From NCBI GenBank assembly GCA_012735215.1, contig JAAYHX010000005.1:2017-66016 (forward strand): a DNA stretch of 64,000 nucleotides, given 5' to 3'. The notes beneath the pieces are model-generated. The model saw only the letters and a list, made by a program, of their open reading frames with translations, was not told where the DNA came from and searched no databases. Positions 11,639 to 28,917 of this stretch are shown one piece after another; within the stretch, counting starts at the first letter, position 1; each line of letters opens with the position of its first letter. The position numbers were made by a program, and so were the translations under genes. The DNA comes from Tissierellia bacterium. GTDB lineage: Bacteria > Bacillota > Clostridia > Tissierellales > Tepidimicrobiaceae.

Positions 11639-11722
11639 TGGTGCGGGAGAGAGGACTTGAACCCCCACGTCAAAGACACTAGATCCTAAGTCTAGCGCGT
11701 CTGCCAGTTCCGCCACTCCCGC
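11639..11722 (-). tRNA. tRNA-Leu (anticodon UAG), CCA encoded
   Basis: Minus strand reads GCGGGAGTGGCGGAACTGGCAGACGCGCTAGACTTAGGATCTAGTGTCTTTGACGTGGGGGTTCAAGTCCTCTCTCCCGCACCA. The 7-bp acceptor stem is GCGGGAG/CTCCCGC. Anticodon stem CTAGA/TCTAG with loop CTTAGGA. Long variable arm, T-loop TTCAAGT. Confidence 0.92.
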
Positions 11723-19187: not shown

Positions 19188-20147
19188 TTATATCTTTCCT
19201 CCTTCTTTAAGAGAATTAACAGTACTGTGAAGGGTTTCTATGCTATTAACATATAAAGTGTCAACTTTTCTATTAATTAGTTTACTTATCCTCTTTACAA
19301 ATCCGGATAGGCTCTTGCCAGGGCCTACTTCTATAAAAGTGTCAACCCCTCTATTTATGAGGAACTCTATGCTCTCCTGCCATAGAACTGATCTGCTAAC
19401 CTGCTTAACTAGCTTTTCCTTTACTTCTTCCTTTTTGACTACTGGTTTGGCATCCACATTGGAAATTAACTCTTTTTCTAAATCGAACAAAGTCGTAGTC
19501 TCCAGTTCTTTCTTTAGTTTTACTTCAGCTTCTTTCAACAAGCTAGAGTGAAAGGGGGCACTTACTGGAAGTAATACTGCCTTTTTAGCTCCCATATCCA
19601 AAACCTTATCACAAACCAGCTGTACTCCTTCCCTTTCCCCTGTAATCACTATCTGTTCAGGGGAATTAAAGTTTGCAATTTCCACCAAGTATTTGCCCTT
19701 AACTTCCTCTATGGCTTCTAATATTTTATCCTTATCTAATCCCAGTATAGCTGCCATACCTCCAAGGCCTTCTGGTACCGTTTCCTGCATCAACTTGCCC
19801 CTAATCTTAACCAGCCTCACAGCATCGCTAAATTTGACTCCGCTAGACTTAACCAAGGCCGTATATTCACCTAAACTTAAGCCTGCTGTATAATCACAGT
19901 CTATACCTTCCTTTTCCAAGGCCTTCATCATGGCAATGCTGGTTGTAAGTATGGCTGGTTGAGTATTTTCCGTTCTTATTAGATCCTCATGAGGTCCTTC
20001 AAAACATAGCTTTCTTATATCCATGTTTAGATATTCATTAGCTTCTTCAAAGACCAATCTGGATTCCTGAAAGTTCTCATAAAAGTCCTTTCCCATACCA
20101 GGGTGCTGGGCACCCTGGCCTGGAAAGATAAAAGCTACTTTACCCAT
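19188..20147 (-). CDS. fabD: malonyl-CoA:ACP transacylase
   Basis: Nucleophile elbow GLSLGEY, FPGQG N-terminus, 319 aa. Confidence 0.93.
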   Translation of the reverse strand: MGKVAFIFPGQGAQHPGMGKDFYENFQESRLVFEEANEYLNMDIRKLCFEGPHEDLIRTENTQPAILTTSIAMMKALEKEGIDCDYTAGLSLGEYTALVKSSGVKFSDAVRLVKIRGKLMQETVPEGLGGMAAILGLDKDKILEAIEEVKGKYLVEIANFNSPEQIVITGEREGVQLVCDKVLDMGAKKAVLLPVSAPFHSSLLKEAEVKLKKELETTTLFDLEKELISNVDAKPVVKKEEVKEKLVKQVSRSVLWQESIEFLINRGVDTFIEVGPGKSLSGFVKRISKLINRKVDTLYVNSIETLHSTVNSLKEGGKI

Positions 20148-21099
20148 CCAGCTTCCCTCCCTTCAAGGAGGTTAACCTGTCCAATTGAGCTAGGGCATCT
20201 TGGATTATATCCTGAATAATTTGACTACATGGCTTAATATCATTAATAAGCCCTGATATTTGCCCAGCCATTACTGAACCCTTATCCACATCTCCTTCTA
20301 CTACAGCAAGTCTGAGTCTACCTGCTCCTAGTTCTTCAAGTTGCCTAATATCCGCTCCACTACTTTCCAATTCCATGTATTCTTTAGCAAACTTGTTTCT
20401 TATCACCCTTACAGGATGTCCCGTACTTCTTCCTGTGACTATAGCGCTTCTATCCTTGGATTTTATAATCGTCTCTTTATAATTGTCATGAACTGTACAT
20501 TCCGTTGAACATACAAATCTAGTCCCCATCTGTACCCCTTCAGCACCTAAGGACAAAGCAGCTAAAAAACCTCTACCGTCTCCGATACCTCCCGCAGCAA
20601 TTACTGGAACATTTACAGCCTCCACAACCTGTGGAATCAAAGCCATGGTAGTTAACTCTCCAATATGACCTCCTGCTTCAGTTCCTTCTACTATTAAGGC
20701 ATCGGCACCTTCCCTTTCTAATCGCTTTGCTAAGGACACTGTAGGTACTACAGGTATTACTTTAATGTCAGCTTTTTTTAATCTTTCAATATACTTTCCT
20801 GGGTTTCCTGCACCTGTAGTCACAACAGGAACCCTCTCTTTACTGATAATCCCTACAATATCCTCAGCAAATGGTGACATAAGCATTATATTTACAGCAA
20901 AAGGCTTATTGCTTATTGCCTTAAGCTTCCTGATCTCTTCTCTAACCCATGCCGGTGGTGCATTTCCTGCAGCAATAATTCCAAGTCCTCCGGCTTCAGA
21001 AACTGCTGCTGCTAGCTTATGGTCAGCTACCCATGCCATGCCACCCTGTAAGATTGGGTATTTAATGTTAAGCAGCCTGCTAATTCTTGTATCGAACAT
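20140..21099 (-). CDS. fabK: enoyl-ACP reductase II (FMN, nitronate-monooxygenase fold)
   Basis: NMO-type TIM barrel lying between fabH and fabD. Start set to ATG 21099 (MFDTRIS...), which follows an AGGAGGTG RBS. Confidence 0.85.
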   Translation of the reverse strand: MFDTRISRLLNIKYPILQGGMAWVADHKLAAAVSEAGGLGIIAAGNAPPAWVREEIRKLKAISNKPFAVNIMLMSPFAEDIVGIISKERVPVVTTGAGNPGKYIERLKKADIKVIPVVPTVSLAKRLEREGADALIVEGTEAGGHIGELTTMALIPQVVEAVNVPVIAAGGIGDGRGFLAALSLGAEGVQMGTRFVCSTECTVHDNYKETIIKSKDRSAIVTGRSTGHPVRVIRNKFAKEYMELESSGADIRQLEELGAGRLRLAVVEGDVDKGSVMAGQISGLINDIKPCSQIIQDIIQDALAQLDRLTSLKGGKLDG

Positions 21100-21110
21100 G
21101 CTCACACCTC

Positions 21111-22106
21111 CTATTTGTTCCACTTTAATAAGGTAGAACCCCATGTTAAACCGGATCCAAAGGCTACCAATAAAATCATATCCCCTGTTTTCAGCAAGCT
21201 ATTCCTATATGCCTCGTCTAAGGCTACTGGTATGGACCCGCTGGACATGTTGCCATATCTGTCTAAGTTCACATAGACCTTATCAGGGGTTATCCCTATT
21301 TTCCTACTTGCTGAATCAATAATTCTTATATTGGCTTGATGAGGAACTAGGTAATCAAGTTCATCTAAAGTAATATTTGCCTTATTAAGGACATTTAGTG
21401 ATGTCTTCTCCATTATTCTCACAGCAAACTTAAAAACTTCTCTTCCATCCATTTTTATAGTGTGAAGATTGTTTGATACAGTTTCATAGCTTGCAGGTAG
21501 TCTTGAACCTCCCGCTGGCATAGTAAGCAGATTTCCATCAGTACCATCTGCTCCTAAATCAAAAGAAAGAAAACCATAACCCTCTTCACACCTCTCAAGA
21601 ATACATGCCCCTGCTCCATCTCCAAACAATATGCAAGTATTCCTGTCCTCCCAGTTGACAATTTTAGACAAGGTTTCTGCTCCAATTATGAGTACCTTCT
21701 TATAGGCTCCTGATCTTATAAAGCTTGCTCCTATCGATAATCCGTATATAAAGCCCGCACATCCTACGGATATATCAAAAGCTGCTGCATTTGCTGCCCC
21801 AATACTCTTCTGAACAATGCATGCAGTTGAGGGGAATGCCATATCTGGAGTTACTGTTGCCACCAATATTAAATCTATTTCTTCTGGTGAAATGCCTCCA
21901 TCTTGTAAGGCCCTTTTTGCAGCTATGGTAGCTATATCAGATGTAGAAGTGTCCTTGTCAACAACCCTTCTCTCTCTGATACCAGTTCTCTCTACAATCC
22001 ATTCATCTGAAGTATCTACTAGTTTAGATATGTCATCATTAGTTATTATCTTTGGTGGTATATAACTGCCTATGCCAGCTATTCCTACATAATCTACACT
22101 ATTCAA
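21111..22106 (-). CDS. fabH: 3-oxoacyl-ACP synthase III
   Basis: Catalytic Cys in GCAGF, HQAN, GNMSSGS. Confidence 0.93.
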   Translation of the reverse strand: MNSVDYVGIAGIGSYIPPKIITNDDISKLVDTSDEWIVERTGIRERRVVDKDTSTSDIATIAAKRALQDGGISPEEIDLILVATVTPDMAFPSTACIVQKSIGAANAAAFDISVGCAGFIYGLSIGASFIRSGAYKKVLIIGAETLSKIVNWEDRNTCILFGDGAGACILERCEEGYGFLSFDLGADGTDGNLLTMPAGGSRLPASYETVSNNLHTIKMDGREVFKFAVRIMEKTSLNVLNKANITLDELDYLVPHQANIRIIDSASRKIGITPDKVYVNLDRYGNMSSGSIPVALDEAYRNSLLKTGDMILLVAFGSGLTWGSTLLKWNK

Positions 22107-22292
22107 TTTTTCACCTCCATTGTGCTATATTTAGTAATCTCTCCTATCACCTCCATAAAAAGTATTTGTAAATAATTTAAAGTTTTTGTATTATTTATTA
22201 AAAGGCATAACACAAAAACTAAGATTAGTATATATGATTTTATTTTGCAGGTCAACTACCTGACAGAAAATGGTAAATTAGGAGTGTGTTAG

Positions 22293-22721
22293 ATGACAAC
22301 ATTTACAATTGAGAATATATTGAAAATACTTCCTCATAGATATCCTTTCCTATTGGTTGATAGGGTGGAAGTCCTAGAGTCAGGGAAAAAAGGTGTAGGG
22401 TATAAGGCTGTGACAATAAATGAACCTTATTTCCAAGGCCATTTTCCAGACCTACCAATAATGCCTGGTGTATTGATAGCTGAAGCCATGGCCCAGGTAG
22501 GGGCTGTAATACTGCTATCAGAAGAAAAATACAAGGGCAAAACCCCTTATTTTGCTGGAATAAATAAGCTTCGTTTCAAGAGGAAAGTAGTGCCGGGAGA
22601 AGTTTTGAGAATGGAAATAGAAATAATTAAGGTAAGAGGTTCAATTGGCATTGGGAAAGGTTCTTCCTATGTGGAAGACAAAATGGCAGCAGAGGGTGAA
22701 TTTTTATTCGCTATAGAATAA
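22293..22721 (+). CDS. fabZ: 3-hydroxyacyl-ACP dehydratase
   Basis: [12 protein letters not shown] and [12 protein letters not shown] hot-dog motifs. 142 aa. Confidence 0.95.
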
Positions 22722-22726
22722 AATTA

Positions 22727-22759
22727 GGGGAGGCTGTTAATTCACAGCTTCCCCTTTTT
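22727..22759 (+). terminator. intrinsic terminator after fabZ
   Basis: Stem GGGGAGGCTGT/ACAGCTTCCCC (one mismatch), followed by TTTTT. Confidence 0.75.
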
Positions 22760-23171
22760 GTAATTCCTTTTCCTTTATGTACTTTGCTTTCACCAGTAGA
22801 CTAAAAAATTCTTCATAGGTTAATTGGCAGAGATCTTTATTACCAATATAAAATCCGTCGGAACAGGGTTTTATATCTAAAAACTCTCCCAAAAATGACC
22901 TTAAGAAAATTCTATCCTTTTCTTCTAATAGGGAGTCAATGGTTTGAGAATGGCATAAATTATAGAGGACCCTAAAAGTCTTCTTTTCTATAATCTTTCT
23001 ATCTATTTCACAGCATTTAATTTGATCGCATATATCAATAATAATATCTAGAACTTTTACTGAATCGGTGGTTTTCAAAAAGGATAAAAACAAAGCTAAG
23101 CATTTTTCTTCCCTGTCATTTTTCTCCCCCACATAGATCAACCCCATTTCAAAAACATGAAATCCATTCAA
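22737..23171 (-). CDS. hypothetical protein (144 aa max), Cys-rich, no recognised family
   Basis: The open frame begins at TTG with no convincing RBS. The C-terminal codons overlap the fabZ terminator hairpin. Composition looks protein-like, but I recognise no homolog. Confidence 0.35.
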   Translation of the reverse strand: MNGFHVFEMGLIYVGEKNDREEKCLALFLSFLKTTDSVKVLDIIIDICDQIKCCEIDRKIIEKKTFRVLYNLCHSQTIDSLLEEKDRIFLRSFLGEFLDIKPCSDGFYIGNKDLCQLTYEEFFSLLVKAKYIKEKELQKGEAVN

Positions 23172-23284
23172 AAAAGGTGCTAAAGTCCTATATCATATTT
23201 ATATAGTACTACATTCCTAAATAAAAAACAATAGATAATTAATAATCTAGAAGTATAATAAATACCTATTACTAGGTTATTATG

Positions 23285-23310
23285 AAAAGCCTACTTTTAT
23301 GTAGGCTTTT
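23285..23310 (-). terminator. terminator hairpin closing the riboswitch-controlled operon
   Basis: Stem AAAAGCCTAC/GTAGGCTTTT with a 6-nt loop, immediately after the stop at 23311. Confidence 0.7.
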
Positions 23311-24948
23311 CTATTTGTTCTCTATAACATTTAGGATTCTATTCATTCTTTCTTCTTCAGTAATGATTTTTTTCCTATCCTTATCATATGCGTATAAGGC
23401 TCCACTTATCACTCTGGTATTTAGAGTACCACTGCAAGCAGGGTTACCTTTTAAGTGAGGTGCGTCTAAAATCCCAATTTTCACAGCCTTAGTTAAAGTT
23501 TCTGGGTCAGTTAAAGGATCCCTATCATCGGGTCCTATGGATTTTATTGCATCTAGTATAATATTAGCCTCTTTAATTAACTCTTCCTTCCTTCTCTGAA
23601 CATTAACATCTTTAGTCATATCTACAGTGCCCAAGAACTCATTCTTGATTACACCCCTTACTATCTTGCAGGATTCAATAATATCTTCAGCCGTTGCAGC
23701 ATGATGAGCTTCACAGTAGCCTACTACATGATAGATGTGTGGCTTTATAGATAAGGCTAAATAGGCTGAAGCAGCTAGTTGTCCTTTAGCTTGGCTTAAA
23801 TCAGCAGGGAAGCTTGCAAGGCCTGCCCTTGCCTGCCTGTATACTCTAAAGTTATCATCCTGTAAACTCTCTACCATTTCAATTTTTGCCAACATCTTAG
23901 CTAGGTCCATTTCTGGGGAGATAAAAGCTGGAACATTGAACATATACTGGGCTATATAATCCTTAACTCCCATCTTTTTAGCGTTATATGCTACTAAGTA
24001 AGCATCAGCCACCCCTACTGCATCGTGAGCATCTCTTAAACTCCAATGGTGAGGGTCATTTACTTCCACAGGTATATTTCTTTCCCCATGCCATCTCATT
24101 ATCTGCTGATTTTCCTCTATAGCATCCCTTAGTTTTCTAGGTCCCCTTTTATCCAACTCGCTATACCAAAACAAAGGGACTGCGCACCAGGCGTTTTTAA
24201 TGGTCCTCTGCAACATGTCAGCAAATTTAACAATATCCTGAGTGCCACTGTAGCAGCGTAGTAATGGATAATTGCCTCTTTGAGAAGCTTCATACAATCT
24301 TATAAAGTCTTCTTCACTTCTTAGAGGAACTCCTCCCGCTCCATCCAATCTCTTATCCATCAATTCCTGTCTGAAGAAGTACTCTTGAGCATTTTGATCT
24401 GGTGCTATGGATATAACATCTAAGACTTTAGACTCGGCAACCTTCTCAATTGCCTCTATTGTATCCTCTAAACTTGGCAAACCTAGATGATGCCTTAGTA
24501 TTGGATAAGGATACTTAGAATTTATTCTAGATATTACATCACTAGGGTATTCCTCATCCTTGGAATAGTCCTTACCTTTTAAGTATCCAATTACTTCATC
24601 AATATCCTCATAGCCATAAAAGATCTTATTGAATATGTCTGACTCATAAGCCACCTTTCCTGTTGGCTCTGTTCCACCAAATAACCAGGTTATACCTTGC
24701 AAGTTGTTTTGTTCTATTTTTTCACTCAATTCTTTTAAGATGGCCACAAGTGGCTCCGGAGTCAAACGATAGCTTAAGGCTACAATATCAGGCTTCTTCT
24801 CCCTTATGTTGCTGATTAATTCATCAATAGATATACCGATGCCTATAAATTCAGTTTCATATCCTTCATTTTCTGCAAGGGTTAAGAAATTCATAGTCCC
24901 TGCAACATGAACACAATTTCCTATAGTGCATGCCATAATCTTTCTCAT
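23311..24948 (-). CDS. B12-binding-domain (Rossmann-like) plus C-terminal putative TIM-barrel protein, function unknown
   Basis: 545 aa. Residues 1-125 align by eye to cobalamin-binding domains (IGNCVHVAGTMNF against GlmS IGSDCHAVGNKIL), but with CxHxxG in place of DxHxxG. The C-terminal ~400 aa are not assignable by eye. The ATGA overlap with the upstream gene implies translational coupling. Confidence 0.6.
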   Translation of the reverse strand: MRKIMACTIGNCVHVAGTMNFLTLAENEGYETEFIGIGISIDELISNIREKKPDIVALSYRLTPEPLVAILKELSEKIEQNNLQGITWLFGGTEPTGKVAYESDIFNKIFYGYEDIDEVIGYLKGKDYSKDEEYPSDVISRINSKYPYPILRHHLGLPSLEDTIEAIEKVAESKVLDVISIAPDQNAQEYFFRQELMDKRLDGAGGVPLRSEEDFIRLYEASQRGNYPLLRCYSGTQDIVKFADMLQRTIKNAWCAVPLFWYSELDKRGPRKLRDAIEENQQIMRWHGERNIPVEVNDPHHWSLRDAHDAVGVADAYLVAYNAKKMGVKDYIAQYMFNVPAFISPEMDLAKMLAKIEMVESLQDDNFRVYRQARAGLASFPADLSQAKGQLAASAYLALSIKPHIYHVVGYCEAHHAATAEDIIESCKIVRGVIKNEFLGTVDMTKDVNVQRRKEELIKEANIILDAIKSIGPDDRDPLTDPETLTKAVKIGILDAPHLKGNPACSGTLNTRVISGALYAYDKDRKKIITEEERMNRILNVIENK

Positions 24949-26060
24949 GAAGCCACCTCCTCATCAGCATTTGTCAATACTTTTCCATTCCTAGCAAATT
25001 CATGTATTTGCTCCACAGTTAAACCCTTTAATCCTAATCTTTCTACAGTTCTTCCTTCCTCATAGAAGTCTCTACCTGTGATAAGGCATGCTAGCCATAT
25101 TATGGAATCAATTGCTGGCGTTTCTATATTGAATTCCTTAGCAATGGATGATAAGGGTACCAGACTACATGGTACATCTTCATATATATATCTATTTAAA
25201 CCCTTAGGAGCTTGAAGCCCCTTGTAGCCGGGATTCTTCTGAACCGTTTCATATAGGCTTTCTCCTTTTATGCCATAAGAATCTTCCAGCCAATCCTTTG
25301 CAGACACTGTGTCAACATTTAATAGTAATCCTATTTTCATCCTTTCAGCATCCATCTTTTCTAAGAAGTTGCTTATGGATGGAGTTATGCCTTCTGTGTA
25401 ATATTCAAAAGGAGCACCTCTTTCAATGTGACCACAGTTTAAAAGGGTTGGTGCAGGATGGAAGATTGCACCATAGTTATTTATACTTGTTTCAATAACG
25501 TCTTTTACAGGTACGAATTGTGGATAAGCATCTTTAAGCATATCTATAACATCATCTGTTCTAACTGAAGGAATAGCAGATAACTTTACTTCTCTTTTAG
25601 ATTTAAATATATGAGCACTGGTTTGGGATGTTTTACGACATGCATAAACAAAGGTTTGGGCTTCAGCAACCACAATATCCTTGTCTGTGGTTCTCTTGAT
25701 GGTTGAATACACCTCTAAAGCTCCACATGTCCTTCCTGGATTCAATACTATTATCTGTCCATCCTTCAAGTAGGGAGCCATTAGCTGAGCTAACTGATAG
25801 TGCCCAGTTGCCGGAATAGTAACCATAATAATGTCAACATCCCTGATAGCCTGTTCAATATCATTTGTAACCAAATTCAATCTGCCTTCCCCATTAGTTT
25901 CTCCAGTAACTTTTATTCTTGGATCCTTTATCAAGGAAAGTATATTATCTAAAGTTCTGTTATAAAGGTTTACACTGTAGCCAATAAGAGCTAGATAACC
26001 TGCCATAGCTACTCCACCATTACCCGCTCCAATAATAGCATACCTTACATCTTTCGCCAT
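24945..26060 (-). CDS. NAD(P)-dependent opine (octopine/nopaline) dehydrogenase family protein
   Basis: 371 aa. N-terminal Rossmann motif IIGAGNGG and an Octopine_DH-like C-terminal domain. GGAGG RBS. Confidence 0.75.
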   Translation of the reverse strand: MAKDVRYAIIGAGNGGVAMAGYLALIGYSVNLYNRTLDNILSLIKDPRIKVTGETNGEGRLNLVTNDIEQAIRDVDIIMVTIPATGHYQLAQLMAPYLKDGQIIVLNPGRTCGALEVYSTIKRTTDKDIVVAEAQTFVYACRKTSQTSAHIFKSKREVKLSAIPSVRTDDVIDMLKDAYPQFVPVKDVIETSINNYGAIFHPAPTLLNCGHIERGAPFEYYTEGITPSISNFLEKMDAERMKIGLLLNVDTVSAKDWLEDSYGIKGESLYETVQKNPGYKGLQAPKGLNRYIYEDVPCSLVPLSSIAKEFNIETPAIDSIIWLACLITGRDFYEEGRTVERLGLKGLTVEQIHEFARNGKVLTNADEEVAS

Positions 26061-26101
26061 CTCATTACCTCCATTCCCACTATTTTCCTGATTCCCAACA
26101 G

Positions 26102-26261
26102 AAATAAAAAACTATAGAGGGTTCTCTATAGTCGCAACATAGCAACCCCTAAAATGCTTACGAGGTTAGCTGACGGGTTAGGGCTAAGGGCGGCCCCTCC
26201 TATACACGGATTCACCCCAAGGAATGGTTCCCCCGCTTCTCTTAACAAGAGAATTCAGCAT
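26102..26261 (-). promoter_or_regulatory. c-di-AMP riboswitch (ydaO-yuaA type) with intrinsic terminator expression platform
   Basis: Minus-strand RNA 26261->26154: AUGCUGAAUUCUCUUGUUAAGAGAAGCGGGGGAACCAUUCCUUGGGGUGAAUCCGUGUAUAGGAGGGGCCGCCCUUAGCCCUAACCCGUCAGCUAACCUCGUAAGCAU. It contains the conserved ydaO blocks as I recall them from B. subtilis ydaO: GCGGGGGA.CC, UGGGGUGAAUCC, AGGG, ACCCGUCAGCUAACCUCGUAAGC. P1 forms as AUGCU.A/UAAGCAU. A terminator CUAUAGAG-AACC-CUCUAUAG plus U6 follows at 26131-26106. This is a GC-rich island in AT-rich spacer. Confidence 0.75.
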
Positions 26262-26473
26262 ATAAATATGTTTAATTGAGAAATATGAATATTTATTGAT
26301 AAAACACTATTGATGTAATCCACTGAAAAGCAAAAACTATATAAGCATAAAGTTGAAATTATGATAATGATTAAAATACATAAGAATTTTTCCATAGGTT
26401 AGAAAGTACATTAATCTAGTTTATAATATACCATAAATAGTAATTATTTTCAATACTTGGTTGTATTTTTCAC

Positions 26474-26519
26474 AAAAAAACACCCTAAAAGTTATGTTGG
26501 TGATTTAACTTTTAGGGTG
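26474..26519 (-). terminator. intrinsic terminator after the OFOR gamma subunit
   Basis: 12-bp stem CACCCTAAAAGT/ACTTTTAGGGTG, followed by U7 on the minus strand. Confidence 0.85.
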
Positions 26520-26551: not shown

Positions 26552-27109
26552 TTATGCAGTTACTCCTGCTTGCTTTCTAATTGCTTCAGCGCCTTTTTCA
26601 ATTGCTTCTTTGTTGATTGGAAGTAGATGTGCTTTACCTTCACCAAATACCTTTGTAAAGCCTGCTAGTACTGAATCTACTGATACAACTTTTGTAGCCT
26701 CTAGATATGCTCCTAGCATTACCATGTTAGCTACTCTTGCATTTCCTAGTTCGCCTGCTATTTCATTACATGGTACATAGTAAATTTCTATATCGTCTCT
26801 TTCAGATTTTCTGTCAATTAGAGAGGAATTTATAAATAGTTTTCCACCTTTAACTACAGAATTTTCAAATTTGTCTAATGAAGGTTTGTTCATTATGATA
26901 GCTGTATTAGCATCCAATACTACTGGTGAACCTACATCATCACTTGAAATAACTACGTTACAGTTAGCAGTACCCCCACGCATTTCTGGACCGTAGGATG
27001 GTAACCATGATACTTGTTTACCCTCGATCATGCCTGCATAGGTTAACAATTGGCCCATAGCCATAACACCTTGACCACCAAAACCAGCTATTATTATTCT
27101 TTCTTCCAT
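26552..27109 (-). CDS. 2-oxoacid:ferredoxin oxidoreductase, gamma subunit
   Basis: 185 aa. GFGGQGV motif. Position is last in the delta-alpha-beta-gamma gene set. Confidence 0.88.
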   Translation of the reverse strand: MEERIIIAGFGGQGVMAMGQLLTYAGMIEGKQVSWLPSYGPEMRGGTANCNVVISSDDVGSPVVLDANTAIIMNKPSLDKFENSVVKGGKLFINSSLIDRKSERDDIEIYYVPCNEIAGELGNARVANMVMLGAYLEATKVVSVDSVLAGFTKVFGEGKAHLLPINKEAIEKGAEAIRKQAGVTA

Positions 27110-27856
27110 CTACTCCACCTCCTCAGGTCTTTTGAAGTTTCCTAATGGATAGTATGGTATCATGTTTTCTTCTAACCATCTTAATGCTTCTTCTGGTGTG
27201 TATCCCCAGTTAGTAGGACAAGTAGATAGTACTTCTACGATACCGAATCCTTTACCATCCAATTGAACTTGGAAGCATTCCTTAATAGCCTTTTTAGCTT
27301 TTCTTACATGAGCTGGTGTAGTTACTGTAACTCTTTCTACGAACTTAGCTCCATCTATTGTGGAAAGCATCTCTGACATTCTGATTGGTTTACCCGCATG
27401 ATTTGGATCTCTACCATATGGTGCAGTTGTTGCTTTTTGTCCAACTAATGTTGTTGGAGCCATTTGACCACCAGTCATACCGTAAATTGCGTTATTTATG
27501 AATATAGTTGATATTTTCTCACCACGAAGTGCTGCGTGAACGATTTCAGCTGTACCTATGGAGGCTAAGTCTCCATCACCTTGATAAGTAAATACAAAGT
27601 TATCTGGGTGAACTCTCTTAATTCCTGTTGCTACTGCTGGAGCTCTACCATGAGCTGCTTCATGCATATCGCAGTTGAAGTATTTGTAAGCCAATACTGA
27701 ACATCCTACAGGTGCAACTCCTATAGCATTGTCCAATACTCCTAGTTCTTCCAACACTTCACCGACCAACCTGTGAACTATTCCATGGGTACATCCAGGA
27801 CAATAGTGGGTTGGTACATCTGTTAATCCTCTAGTCTTTTGAAATACTACTGACAT
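27110..27856 (-). CDS. 2-oxoacid:ferredoxin oxidoreductase, beta (TPP-binding) subunit
   Basis: 248 aa. CPGCTHG cluster motif and GDGD...N TPP/Mg site. Confidence 0.9.
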   Translation of the reverse strand: MSVVFQKTRGLTDVPTHYCPGCTHGIVHRLVGEVLEELGVLDNAIGVAPVGCSVLAYKYFNCDMHEAAHGRAPAVATGIKRVHPDNFVFTYQGDGDLASIGTAEIVHAALRGEKISTIFINNAIYGMTGGQMAPTTLVGQKATTAPYGRDPNHAGKPIRMSEMLSTIDGAKFVERVTVTTPAHVRKAKKAIKECFQVQLDGKGFGIVEVLSTCPTNWGYTPEEALRWLEENMIPYYPLGNFKRPEEVE

Positions 27857-28917
27857 TAGATTTCACCTCCATAGATTTTCTTAACTTTTTCTATGATCTC
27901 GTTTGGTGTAGGTACCATACCTCCCAATCTTCCATGGAAGTATACTGGGAATCTACCATTTACTGCTATCTTAACATCATCTACCATTTGTCCAGAGTTC
28001 ATTTCTACTGTTAAGATACCTTTACATTTATCGCTTATCTTATTGAACTCATCGTATGGATATGGCCATAATGAAATTGGTCTTATTAATCCAACCTTGT
28101 AGCCTTCTTTTTCTAATTGTGCAATAGCAGTTTTTGCTATTCTTGATGTTGTTCCGTAAGCTGCAATTACTACATCAGCATCTTCTATATTATAGGATTC
28201 TACTTTTACTTCATTTTCTCTTATCTTTTGATATTTTGCTTGAAGGCGTATATTATGAGCTTCTAGTTCTTCTGGTGATAGGTATAGTGAGTTAATGATA
28301 TTTGGTTTTCTCTCACCTTTAGTTCCATTTGTAGCCCAATCCTTTGGTGGTAACTCTCTTGTCTTAGGCTTCTTGAATTCTACTGGTTCCATCATTTGTC
28401 CAATCATTCCATCTCCAAGGATCATAACTGGATTTCTATATTGGTCTGCTATATCAAAACCTTCTATTATAAGGTCAACTAATTCTTGTACATTTGATGG
28501 AGCTAGTACAACTAACCTATAATCTCCATTTCCACCGCCTCTTGTAGCTTGGAAATAGTCAGTTTGAGATGGTTGAATACTTCCTAGTCCTGGACCACCT
28601 CTCATGATGTTAACTATCAAACAGGGTAGTTCAGCACCTGCAATGTAAGAAATTCCTTCTTGTTTTAATGATATACCAGGGCTTGATGATGAAGTCATTA
28701 CTCTTGCACCTGATCCTGCTGCTCCATATACCATGTTTATTGCTGCAATTTCACTTTCTGCTTGTAGGAATACACCTCCTGCCTTTGGTAACTCTCTAGC
28801 CATGAATTCAGGTAATTCACTTTGTGGAGTAATTGGATAACCAAAGAAATATTTACATCCTGCTTCTATAGCAGCGGCTCCTATAGCTTCATTACCTTTC
28901 ATGAGAACTTTAGCCAT
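27856..28917 (-). CDS. 2-oxoacid:ferredoxin oxidoreductase, alpha subunit
   Basis: 353 aa. POR/KOR/VOR alpha family N-terminus (GNEA...GYPITP). Its start overlaps the beta-subunit stop by 1 nt. Confidence 0.9.
   Translation of the reverse strand: MAKVLMKGNEAIGAAAIEAGCKYFFGYPITPQSELPEFMARELPKAGGVFLQAESEIAAINMVYGAAGSGARVMTSSSSPGISLKQEGISYIAGAELPCLIVNIMRGGPGLGSIQPSQTDYFQATRGGGNGDYRLVVLAPSNVQELVDLIIEGFDIADQYRNPVMILGDGMIGQMMEPVEFKKPKTRELPPKDWATNGTKGERKPNIINSLYLSPEELEAHNIRLQAKYQKIRENEVKVESYNIEDADVVIAAYGTTSRIAKTAIAQLEKEGYKVGLIRPISLWPYPYDEFNKISDKCKGILTVEMNSGQMVDDVKIAVNGRFPVYFHGRLGGMVPTPNEIIEKVKKIYGGEI

Follow-up and report, generated by a model that had tools for sequence, protein, structure and literature searches.

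The c-di-AMP regulon is the main bacterial handle on K+ and osmolyte balance, and part of its riboswitch cargo is without an assignment. The window analyzed here, a 64,000-nucleotide stretch of DNA from a Tissierellia bacterium (contig JAAYHX010000005.1), raises this question in concrete form: what does a c-di-AMP riboswitch govern when the 2 genes behind it code for an opine dehydrogenase (ODH) family enzyme and a B12-binding protein? The first-pass annotation, made from the sequence alone, knew of no described function for this pair, and a full-text and supplement search of the literature outside the association tables of Block 2010 and Nelson 2013 likewise returned no paper on the enzyme pair or on its combination with c-di-AMP riboswitches. 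Our preferred reading, to which we give a probability of roughly 0.6, is that the riboswitch is an OFF switch and that the pair, expressed when c-di-AMP is low, supplies the cell with a solute or K+ counter-ion derived from an amino acid. In many bacteria, the gene neighborhoods and regulatory signals around the pair suggest a hitherto undescribed pathway for salt and potassium stress.

The riboswitch and the limits of its operon

A cmscan search of the whole window gave a single riboswitch match, to a c-di-AMP aptamer of the ydaO/yuaA type at 26140..26270 on the minus strand (RF00379; score 93.2 bits, gathering score 38; E 1e-20; all 134 model positions covered). The ydaO-type assignment had originally been made by eye, with an Rfam covariance-model search proposed as its check, and it came through that check well; all 4 of the core sequence blocks quoted in its favor are present, and the GC-rich island described there is real, with a G+C of 0.54 at 26120-26239 against 0.19-0.24 in the upstream intergenic DNA. 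The aptamer lies in the 5'-UTR on the coding strand, 79 nt before the ODH start, and has a P1 helix at about 26260..26155 and a pseudoknot in which the AGGGG of the 3' tail pairs with a CCCU loop. Across 20 orthologous aptamers, double (compensatory) changes occur at 9 of 25 pairs, and the pseudoknot covaries through 9 distinct complementary variants, loops and tails pairing over a mean of 5.15 bp with their own partners versus 3.9 bp with mismatched ones. By family, as judged from these sequence features, the leader RNA is a c-di-AMP riboswitch. A permissive Rfam scan of the ~150 nt of leader that precede the aptamer found nothing credible as a second riboswitch, and a tandem arrangement was dropped.

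Behind the aptamer, sequence reading and a hairpin scan place the putative expression platform at 26104..26133 (minus strand), an intrinsic terminator hairpin of the form GACTATAGAG-aacc-CTCTATAGTT followed by a T run. The hairpin and T run stand as first described, but the stem around the AACC loop is 9-10 bp, not 8 bp. A scan found an equivalent hairpin and T run in 19 of 20 orthologous leaders, with the same stem and a long loop in L004; the aptamer-then-terminator order from which an OFF switch had been predicted is present in this leader and in 19-20 of the initial set of 20 orthologs. Riboswitches for c-di-AMP that are built in this way are described as OFF switches that govern osmolyte-synthesis genes too, for example ablA and dapB (PMC9337991), and cell-wall genes are among the known targets of c-di-AMP riboswitches in general (PMC7266159). 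Pairing of the purine-rich aptamer tail with the loop or 3' arm of the terminator was considered as an anti-terminator and abandoned, its complementarity of 7.0 bp being no better than the 6.7 bp obtained with shuffled tails. Because no anti-terminator could be defined, the switching mechanism that we propose is taken from the layout only.

Set beside the leaders of B. subtilis kimA and Dehalobacter ablA, this one shares the full-length covariance-model match, the same helices and covarying pseudoknot, the position in the 5'-UTR, and the succession of aptamer and intrinsic terminator, and its cargo plausibly belongs to osmotic or K+ physiology as well. Only the cargo differs, being an uncharacterized enzyme pair with no transporter, cell-wall hydrolase, or known osmolyte gene. 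The riboswitch itself is ordinary, and the novelty lies in what it governs.

The upstream 2-oxoacid:ferredoxin oxidoreductase genes end in an intrinsic terminator, read from sequence, at 26474..26519 (minus strand; CACCCTAAAAGTT...AACTTTTAGGGTG and T7), with a hairpin and T run at the equivalent place in relatives; taken at its sequence, this terminator insulates the riboswitch operon from those genes. Between the oxidoreductase genes and the riboswitch operon, a consensus scan picked out a conserved candidate promoter at 26425..26453 (minus strand; TTGAAA, 17 nt, and TATATT with the TG of an extended -10; 10 of 12 matches), whose TTG and TG-TA-A-T columns show no variation among 5 related leaders. 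At the other end, the hairpin scan found a palindromic hairpin, AAAAGCCTAC ataa/aagt GTAGGCTTTT, at 23284..23311 directly after the stop of the second gene, where it likely ends the 2-gene operon. The flanking VOR and fab genes are common to the window's close relatives by plain synteny, and they were rejected as functional partners since that synteny is confined to close relatives and terminators lie between.

The two enzymes and their relatives

The first gene (24945..26060, minus strand) codes for a 371-aa protein that is, on its sequence, a member of the opine dehydrogenase family. It matches the helical domain PF02317 (Octopine_DH) in Pfam at 151.9 bits against a cut-off of 30 (E 1.8e-44), carries the NAD(P) Rossmann motif IIGAGNGG at its N-terminal residues 8-15, and aligns over its full length with PDB 1bg6 (273 bits), including the HPxPTLLN and RYxxEDV motifs. 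The phmmer alignment shows identity at all 3 of His202, Arg292, and Asp297 of 1bg6, which we take to be its catalytic residues. The GxGxxG and His/Arg/Asp motifs are common to this protein, the Arthrobacter N-(1-D-carboxyethyl)-L-norvaline dehydrogenase (1bg6), and the octopine and nopaline synthases of PF02317; unlike these relatives, however, the ODH described here is always paired with a B12-type mutase-like protein, once as a fusion, and 7 loci have an N-terminal PTS EIIA domain on the ODH.

The start of the second gene (23311..24948, minus strand) overlaps the ODH stop in an ATGA, with GAGGAGG upstream. Open reading frames and Pfam bear out the original description of the cargo as a coupled pair of an opine-dehydrogenase-family enzyme and a 545-aa protein with a B12-like N-terminus, while the C-terminal domain that had been called unassigned can now be given a fold. 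Residues ~1-125 form a B12-binding Rossmann domain (PF02310, 37.5 bits against a cut-off of 32.1, residues 3-98), which Foldseek matches to the corrinoid proteins 1y80, 4jgi, and 4r3u_D over ~125 residues at an rmsd of 2.0-2.6. The residues of the B12 motif are present with MutS-like spacing (C12-x-H14-x-x-G17, S59..L62, G91-G92), the Asp of DxHxxG being exchanged for a nearly invariant Cys12. Because Cys replaces the canonical Asp (CxHxxG rather than DxHxxG), we infer the use of B12 rather than reading it directly from the motif.

We assign residues ~140-545 to a glutamate-mutase-E-like (MutE-like) TIM barrel chiefly on modeled structure. In the AlphaFold model of the protein (pLDDT 91.4), the top Foldseek matches of the barrel are 6h9e_B and 1cb7_B (E ~1e-16, TM 0.59-0.68). 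Comparison with a MutE profile by hhalign gave E 2.3e-4 over 295 columns at a probability of 44%, a value of this order (2e-4) being obtained only with a purpose-built MutE alignment; the sequence-only route failed, as HMMER profiles against the PDB did not reach MutE and a profile compared with one MutE sequence had a probability of 0.7%. PF06368 scores 25.2 bits, just under its cut-off of 26.6, and TIGR01503 scores 14.8 against 390. The barrel and glutamate mutase share (R/Y)xGTxD and GxLDxP motifs, and there are paralogs fused to the glutamate mutase reactivase MutL.

Glutamate mutase itself (GlmS/MutS and GlmE/MutE, EC 5.4.99.1; 1cb7, 6h9e) also combines a B12 Rossmann domain with a TIM barrel, but it does so in separate S and E subunits, whereas gene 2 codes for a single polypeptide with the B12 domain at its N-terminus. 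In the hhalign alignment, which is moderately reliable at its probability of 44%, MutE R149, E171, and Y181 fall on Tyr233, Pro258, and the variable Lys267 (MutE numbering checked on 6h9e_B; R66 and R100 lie outside the aligned part). Because the glutamate-binding residues are not conserved, we conclude that the gene 2 protein is not a glutamate mutase. The active-site residues, the Cys in place of the Asp of DxHxxG, family scores under the Pfam and NCBIfam cut-offs, and gene context all led us to reject that identity; in contrast to the E. coli O157 cluster ECs_0760-0764 with its MutL and methylaspartase, the pair has no such neighbors in the 131 loci described below. An identity as a PLP aminomutase (lysine 5,6- or ornithine 4,5-) was rejected too: PLP/B12 aminomutases carry a conserved PLP-binding lysine in their Rossmann domain, residues 1-135 of gene 2 contain no invariant or nearly invariant Lys, and the fold match is weaker than that to MutE.

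Distribution and genomic setting of the pair

Of 131 related loci, 51 from genomes and 80 from metagenomes, 120 contain both genes, which lie side by side or fused in 119, and one locus holds a natural EIIA-ODH-B12 fusion. Metagenomes contain at least 568 relatives (~168 clusters at 50% identity), which come from many phyla and almost always keep the two genes together. Co-occurrence with ydaO leaders, which the first-pass annotation had suggested looking for in other Clostridia, was borne out, the aptamer standing ahead of the pair in 51 fetched loci (19 of the 51 from genomes and 32 of the 80 from metagenomes). Aptamer-bearing loci come from genomes of ~30% to 66% G+C, and 10 of them, confirmed with Rfam, have 46-66% G+C; the c-di-AMP link of the pair reaches beyond Clostridia-type low-G+C genomes.

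Loci without the c-di-AMP riboswitch present other osmotic or cation signals, seen in other phyla, namely nhaA-I, MscS genes, and EIIA-ODH fusions. MscS-type genes share an operon with the pair in 7 loci. The fused domain on the ODH is PTS_EIIA_2, confirmed with Pfam in L026, L028, L032, L033, and L106; in L031 and L046 it is deduced from an ORF length and a cluster that match. In L047, an nhaA-I riboswitch is followed by genes for MscS, an AsnB-like protein, the B12 protein, the ODH, and an MscS-type protein. The MscS, nhaA-I, and EIIA contexts amount to only ~15 of the 131 loci, several of them related, and they give independent support to the osmoadaptive role first proposed for the operon, which they suggest rather than settle.

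The recurrent extra genes code for amide-forming enzymes of AsnB-like, Ddl-like, and D-glutamate-cyclase-like types, a set that points to glutamate-type carboxylate chemistry if sequence resemblance is a guide. The Ddl-like and AsnB-like proteins score far under the cut-offs of all named families, the latter at 104-134 bits against 570 for TIGR03104 and without about the first 120 residues of AsnB. The NAGGN pathway (AsnO/Ngg) was rejected on that TIGR03104 score and on the lack of any GNAT/Ngg gene at the loci examined. Known osmolyte operons (ablAB for N-epsilon-acetyl-beta-lysine, asnO-ngg for NAGGN, and ect with MscS) have control by a c-di-AMP and/or cation riboswitch in common with the pair, whose own operons include Asn-synthase-like amidotransferase and MscS "safety valve" genes; the amidotransferase of asnO-ngg and the MscS gene of ect clusters are the parallels. 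The known osmolyte enzymes, on the other hand, are all absent here, and the core enzymes are from other families.

A proposed solute pathway and its rivals

We infer the direction of switching as follows: when c-di-AMP is bound, the aptamer and pseudoknot would be locked, the hairpin would terminate transcription, and the operon would be silent, and when c-di-AMP is low, the state of K+ and osmolyte import, transcription would read through. The ODH, working reductively, would then form an N-carboxyalkyl amino acid from an amino acid, a 2-oxo acid, and NAD(P)H, and gene 2 would supply a fused, probably adenosylcobalamin-dependent, glutamate-mutase-like isomerase. Together they may turn a common amino or oxo acid, most likely one akin to glutamate or 2-oxoglutarate, into an unusual imino-polycarboxylate that could serve as an organic solute or K+ counter-ion. 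In many lineages, AsnB-like, Ddl-like, or RimK-like ATP-grasp and D-glutamate-cyclase-like enzymes would amidate, ligate, or cyclize its carboxylates. What the sequences themselves show of this scheme is which riboswitch is present, that a terminator follows it, to which families the enzymes belong, that the two genes stay together, and in which regulatory settings they occur.

A more specific version, which we offer tentatively and consider somewhat doubtful, is that the pair forms a previously undescribed pathway, widespread among anaerobes, to a novel class of osmolyte or K+ counter-ion in prokaryotes. The product would be a glutamate/2-oxoglutarate-derived opine with a carbon skeleton rearranged by an adenosylcobalamin radical enzyme, sometimes amidated or cyclized, and its synthesis would be wired in different phyla to 3 ion/osmotic signals (the c-di-AMP riboswitch, nhaA-I, and PTS-EIIA). 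If true, osmolyte synthesis that depends on B12 would have its first example here. Should the pair make a new solute, osmoadaptation in anaerobes, including those of ammonia- and salt-stressed biogas communities, would gain a pathway, opine dehydrogenases a general physiological role in bacteria, and B12-type mutases a new reaction.

Opine dehydrogenases can also run in the catabolic direction, and the pair might ferment or recycle an amino acid or opine-like compound, for instance in a methylaspartate-related glutamate route, with c-di-AMP acting in the glutamate/K+ balance. The carriers are amino-acid-fermenting anaerobes from digesters, the nearest solved relative, 1bg6, is from an Arthrobacter strain grown on an opine, and glutamate fermentation begins with an enzyme of the same mutase-like fold, yet the glutamate-binding residues that such a route would lead one to expect are not conserved. 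The 2-oxoacid:ferredoxin oxidoreductase genes just upstream in the window would also suit fermentation, but they are set apart by the terminator and conserved promoter and co-occur only through synteny in close relatives. With methylaspartase, MutL, and other fermentation genes accompanying the pair in none of the 131 loci, and with ATP-consuming amide-forming enzymes and MscS channels as its recurrent partners, a setting that fits synthesis, we think a catabolic role unlikely.

Less probable again is that the pair makes an unusual amino or imino acid for the cell envelope, either for a peptidoglycan stem peptide or for a surface glycan, as a cell-wall target of the c-di-AMP riboswitch. Lachnospiraceae-type loci do place the pair among genes for a DegT aminotransferase, a GT2, a polysaccharide flippase, and a nucleotidyl transferase, but this glycan context is confined to one clade without the riboswitch. 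Peptidoglycan amidotransferases belong among the AsnB-like enzymes, Ddl-like ligases stand in the riboswitch-controlled operon in 5 loci, and Lnt-like genes follow the pair in 5; against this, the low scores of the Ddl-like and AsnB-like proteins given above tie them to no named family, and the recurrent neighbors include no Mur ligase, transpeptidase, or other gene for peptidoglycan. Control of cell-wall genes by c-di-AMP riboswitches (PMC7266159) agrees with an envelope role, whereas MscS, nhaA-I, and the EIIA fusions fit solute homeostasis better.

Synthesis of an opine-type, staphylopine-like metallophore by the ODH, perhaps to provide the B12 protein with cobalt, is very improbable and was rejected: an Octopine_DH-family enzyme does finish staphylopine-type metallophores and the partner does have a B12-binding domain, but a PDB search at E <= 0.01 gave only Arthrobacter 1bg6 and octopine dehydrogenase from a database that also holds metallophore opine dehydrogenases, and no nicotianamine-synthase-like (CntL-like) gene, exporter, or metal-uptake system recurs by the pair in the 131 loci. 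Because several cultured species carry the operon, among them Tepidanaerobacter acetatoxydans, Schnuerera ultunensis, Anaerosalibacter bizertensis, and Thermosediminibacter litoriperuensis, the solute reading that we prefer is directly testable.

[quoted passage not shown]

A covariance-model scan with Rfam 15 found one riboswitch in the 64-kb window, a c-di-AMP (ydaO/yuaA, RF00379) aptamer at 26270..26140 on the minus strand, which matches the model from end to end at 93.2 bits (gathering score 38; E 1e-20). The first-pass annotation had proposed a ydaO-yuaA riboswitch here from conserved sequence blocks; all of the blocks it quoted are in the sequence, and membership of the c-di-AMP class is virtually certain. 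The aptamer is an island with a G+C fraction of 0.54, compared with 0.19-0.24 in the upstream spacer. Seven bases past the Rfam match begins an intrinsic terminator hairpin, GACTATAGAG-aacc-CTCTATAGTT, with its T run (26133..26104, minus strand); the earlier description of a terminator was right as to the hairpin and T run, with a stem of 9-10 bp instead of the 8 bp it had given. Further on are a ribosome-binding site, GGAGG, and the start codon, the ATG at 26060.

Upstream, a separate terminator (26519..26474, minus strand) closes the neighboring 2-oxoacid:ferredoxin oxidoreductase genes, and after it comes a promoter-like site, TTGAAA-17-TGnTATATT (26453..26425, minus strand), whose key bases are invariant among five related leaders. 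At the other end, a palindromic hairpin directly after the gene 2 stop codon marks the closing limit of the operon, and because of this hairpin downstream and the terminator and promoter-like site upstream, we regard the two genes as an independent transcription unit. The approximately 150 nt between the distal promoter-like site and the aptamer (26271-26424, minus strand) have no Rfam match. In three related loci (L002, L003, and L014), there is a second element, proximal and TTGACT/TATAAT-like, immediately upstream of the aptamer; in the window this element is degenerate.

The 20 orthologous aptamers that we compared (the window and 19 genome loci) share one architecture, and 9 of the 25 predicted pairs show compensatory double changes. 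Covariation is also seen in the pseudoknot that the internal loop forms with the 3' tail, which has CCCU/AGGG, CUCUU/AAGAG, CCUUUA/UAAAGG, and CUCUAG/CUAGAG among its variants, and each loop pairs with its own tail over a mean of 5.15 bp versus 3.9 bp for mismatched partners. By these comparisons, the riboswitch appears to be a normal, functional member of its class. A simple scan found a hairpin and T run 3' of the aptamer in 19 of the 20 leaders, the other, L004, having the same stem with a long loop. Switches of the c-di-AMP class that are turned OFF, with termination favored by the bound ligand, are described as having this layout of aptamer followed by terminator (PMC9337991). A candidate anti-terminator pairing was dropped since its complementarity was no better than chance, and the direction of switching is taken from layout and precedent, which make OFF switching by termination likely.

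An opine dehydrogenase and a fused B12 mutase-like protein

Gene 1 (24945..26060, minus strand, 371 aa) and gene 2 (23311..24948, minus strand, 545 aa) are joined by an ATGA overlap, and GAGGAGG precedes the second start, so the translationally coupled pair that had been proposed from the overlap holds up. Gene 1 matches Pfam Octopine_DH (E 1.8e-44) and aligns over its full length with the Arthrobacter N-(1-D-carboxyethyl)-L-norvaline dehydrogenase (PDB 1bg6, 273 bits). The residues of that enzyme that we take to be catalytic, His202, Arg292, and Asp297, align to identical residues in gene 1, which very probably carries out opine dehydrogenase chemistry.

Gene 2 begins with a B12-binding domain (PF02310 at 37.5 bits, above the cut-off of 32.1), and its large C-terminal domain matches Met_asp_mut_E at sub-threshold scores only. 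An AlphaFold model built with 19 diverse homologues (pLDDT 91.4, pTM 0.84) has as its closest solved structures glutamate mutase subunit E (6h9e_B and 1cb7_B, E ~1e-16, TM 0.59-0.68), followed by lysine 5,6- and ornithine 4,5-aminomutase and then by acyl-CoA mutases. For the comparison with MutE, we fetched the E. coli O157 protein, checked residue numbering on the crystallised enzyme, and compared a MutE alignment with that of the gene 2 family profile to profile; the resulting match (E 2.3e-4 over 295 columns) supports homology, and both share the motifs (R/Y)xGTxD and GxLDxP. Although the barrel fold is alike, gene 2 is one fused polypeptide, and we ruled out a glutamate mutase: R149, E171, and Y181 of that enzyme align to Tyr233, Pro258, and a variable residue, family scores are sub-threshold, and neither MutL nor methylaspartase genes are neighbors. 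What the gene 2 family keeps instead are several invariant arginines, R152 and R210 among them, together with Y233, E295, and H407, a set that might suit a polycarboxylate substrate, though this is only a suggestion from residue conservation.

The cobalamin motif of gene 2 reads C12-x-H14-x-x-G17, with His, Gly, Ser/Leu, and GG elements at MutS-like spacing. In alignments A1 and A2 of the family, a nearly invariant Cys replaces the expected Asp of DxHxxG, in gene 2 relatives and in paralogues alike, including those fused to MutL, the glutamate mutase reactivase; this Cys may act in redox sensing, tune the His differently, or go with another cofactor. These paralogues span about 600-1270 aa overall: an unnamed group (P0269, P0270, P0274, and P0286-P0305) of ~600-630 aa has a B12 domain and a MutE-like barrel at 30-37% identity, and its MutL-fused members are ~830-1270 aa long. 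That paralogues fuse to MutL argues that the wider family uses adenosylcobalamin, and it is fairly probable that gene 2 itself is a corrinoid-dependent isomerase.

A widespread module with an old riboswitch link

The closest named relatives of the window are Tissierellia, and its DNA matches MAG GCA_023622125.1 and contigs from biogas-fermenter metagenomes. When one genome was scanned for each species, 51 loci were obtained, from Bacillota, Bacteroidota, Ignavibacteriota, Omnitrophota, Spirochaetota, Actinomycetota, Acidobacteriota, Verrucomicrobiota, Thermotogota, and candidate phyla; a metagenome scan added at least 568 relatives, from which 80 loci were fetched for a total of 131. Both genes are present in 120 of the 131 loci and adjacent or fused in 119, with the dehydrogenase first in 103 and second in 16; L032:495-3773 is a single 1092-aa ORF that joins an EIIA domain, the dehydrogenase, and the B12/MutE-like protein. 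The two genes are a conserved module. An exhaustive representative search (E below 1e-30) yielded 168 clusters at 50% identity, and no source gave an informative name, the labels including "cobalamin B12-binding domain-containing protein" and "methionine synthase."

A c-di-AMP aptamer lies just upstream of the pair on the same strand in 16 of 16 close genome loci, and Rfam also detects one in L050 and in a pair of Bacillota MAGs with a protein of only ~50% identity. The same model finds none in the 25 loci of other phyla or in the Lachnospiraceae, Syntrophomonadaceae, and Pelotomaculum loci. With a covariance model built from the 20 orthologous aptamers, 32 of the 80 metagenome loci have the aptamer. 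Ten of these 32 have 46-66% G+C and a protein ~55-57% identical to any reference, and Rfam confirms all ten aptamers at 79-102 bits. In this high-G+C group, the third operon gene encodes a Ddl-like ATP-grasp ligase (L094, L096, L097, L098, and L131) or an AsnB-like enzyme (L100 and L107; also L074). The link between riboswitch and cargo is old and wide.

The RNA belongs to a known class and is ordinary within it; its cargo is a widespread pair of enzymes without a name, in which gene 2 varies the B12 mutase architecture in a new way. Our literature search found no link of these enzyme families to each other, to osmolytes, or to c-di-AMP; the two primary ydaO papers may list the association, uncommented, in their gene tables, which lay outside that search.

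Flanking the operon are a fatty-acid synthesis cluster (19188-22721; minus-strand fabD, fabK, and fabH and plus-strand fabZ) and the genes for a 2-oxoacid:ferredoxin oxidoreductase of three subunits, the alpha one VorB-like (26552-28917). Close relatives show synteny for both, and neither has a link to the operon. A 144-aa ORF (22737-23171, minus strand) lies directly downstream and has no credible Pfam or NCBIfam match; related Tissierellia loci (e.g., L002, L003, L052, and L053) keep it in the same place.

A possible osmotic role and its rivals

We put the probability that the pair has an osmotic or K+ role at roughly 0.55-0.6. At low c-di-AMP, K+ and osmolyte uptake is switched on, and read-through of the terminator would then allow both enzymes to be made. 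The pair could produce an N-carboxyalkyl amino acid whose skeleton, or that of its precursor, is rearranged by the B12 radical enzyme, and this product would act as an organic solute or anion, inert in the cell, that goes with K+. In loci with amide-forming enzymes, its charge could be lowered by amidation, ligation, or lactam formation. Accessory enzymes include AsnB-like proteins in 22 loci (shorter than AsnB by about 120 N-terminal residues and scoring under the cut-off of every named family), Ddl-like ligases in 7, Lnt-like CN-hydrolases in 5, and D-glutamate-cyclase-like proteins in 3, where an AsnB-like gene comes next wherever the contig continues; in P0255, a RimK/GshB-like ATP-grasp domain is fused to the mutase-like protein. 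All act on amino-acid carboxylates or amides, and the glutamate flavor of several, and of the mutase fold, suggests a substrate derived from glutamate or 2-oxoglutarate.

Other loci hold independent clues to function. The main nhaA-I class of riboswitches senses Li+. In a Candidatus Omnitrophota MAG (L047, JBDRQI010000001.1, 3408-9598), an nhaA-I motif RNA (RF03057, 49.5 bits against 37) with its own terminator-like hairpin precedes a tightly spaced plus-strand run of MscS, AsnB-like, B12/MutE-like, dehydrogenase, and MscS-type genes, which looks like a cation-riboswitch-controlled osmotic operon around the same pair. Some nhaA-I variants are reported as Na+ sensors (PMC9337991), and this RNA may be of either ion type. 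MscS-type genes lie in the operon in seven loci (L021, L024, L027, L029, L030, L047, and L095). Known osmolyte operons carry MscS "safety valves." In seven loci, the dehydrogenase has at its N terminus a PTS_EIIA_2 domain akin to PtsN and fructose-type EIIA, confirmed by Pfam in L026, L028, L032, L033, and L106 and inferred from ORF length and cluster in L031 and L046; all but the L032 fusion are ~523 aa. PtsN regulates K+ uptake in enterobacteria.

If the pair were catabolic instead, this would fit the lifestyle of its carriers and the origin of 1bg6, but the ATP-consuming partners and the MscS genes would be out of place and no fermentation genes accompany the pair, which leaves this reading unlikely. 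A cell-envelope role would account for the Ddl-like and AsnB-like partners and for the glycan genes around the pair in one clade, but that clade lacks the riboswitch and peptidoglycan genes do not recur, so we consider it improbable. The clade in question is Lachnospiraceae-like (L017, L018, L103, L105, and L126), with the B12 gene first, no riboswitch, and DegT aminotransferase, ATP-grasp, GT2, polysaccharide flippase, and nucleotidyl transferase neighbors, a surface-glycan-type context unlike that of the other loci. A part in metallophore synthesis has no support.

On a marine-sediment contig (L078:945-7635), a 311-aa ORF, two ABC ATPase genes, and a 268-aa ORF precede the pair on the same strand, possibly an Opp/Dpp-type transporter in the same operon. 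A metagenome contig of 58% G+C has a cobalamin riboswitch (L095:9614-9790, 94 bits) ~5 kb downstream of an MscS-dehydrogenase-B12 operon, which could point to B12-related genes nearby. In a Tepidanaerobacteraceae MAG, a c-di-GMP-I-GGC riboswitch (L012:1240-1323, 74 bits) sits upstream of a 611-aa ORF and ~3.3 kb upstream of that locus's c-di-AMP riboswitch. The Thermosediminibacter litoriperuensis locus has a group II intron domain match (L006:262-332, 45 bits), and the only tRNA of the window is a tRNA-Leu with anticodon UAG and a long variable arm (11639-11722, minus strand).
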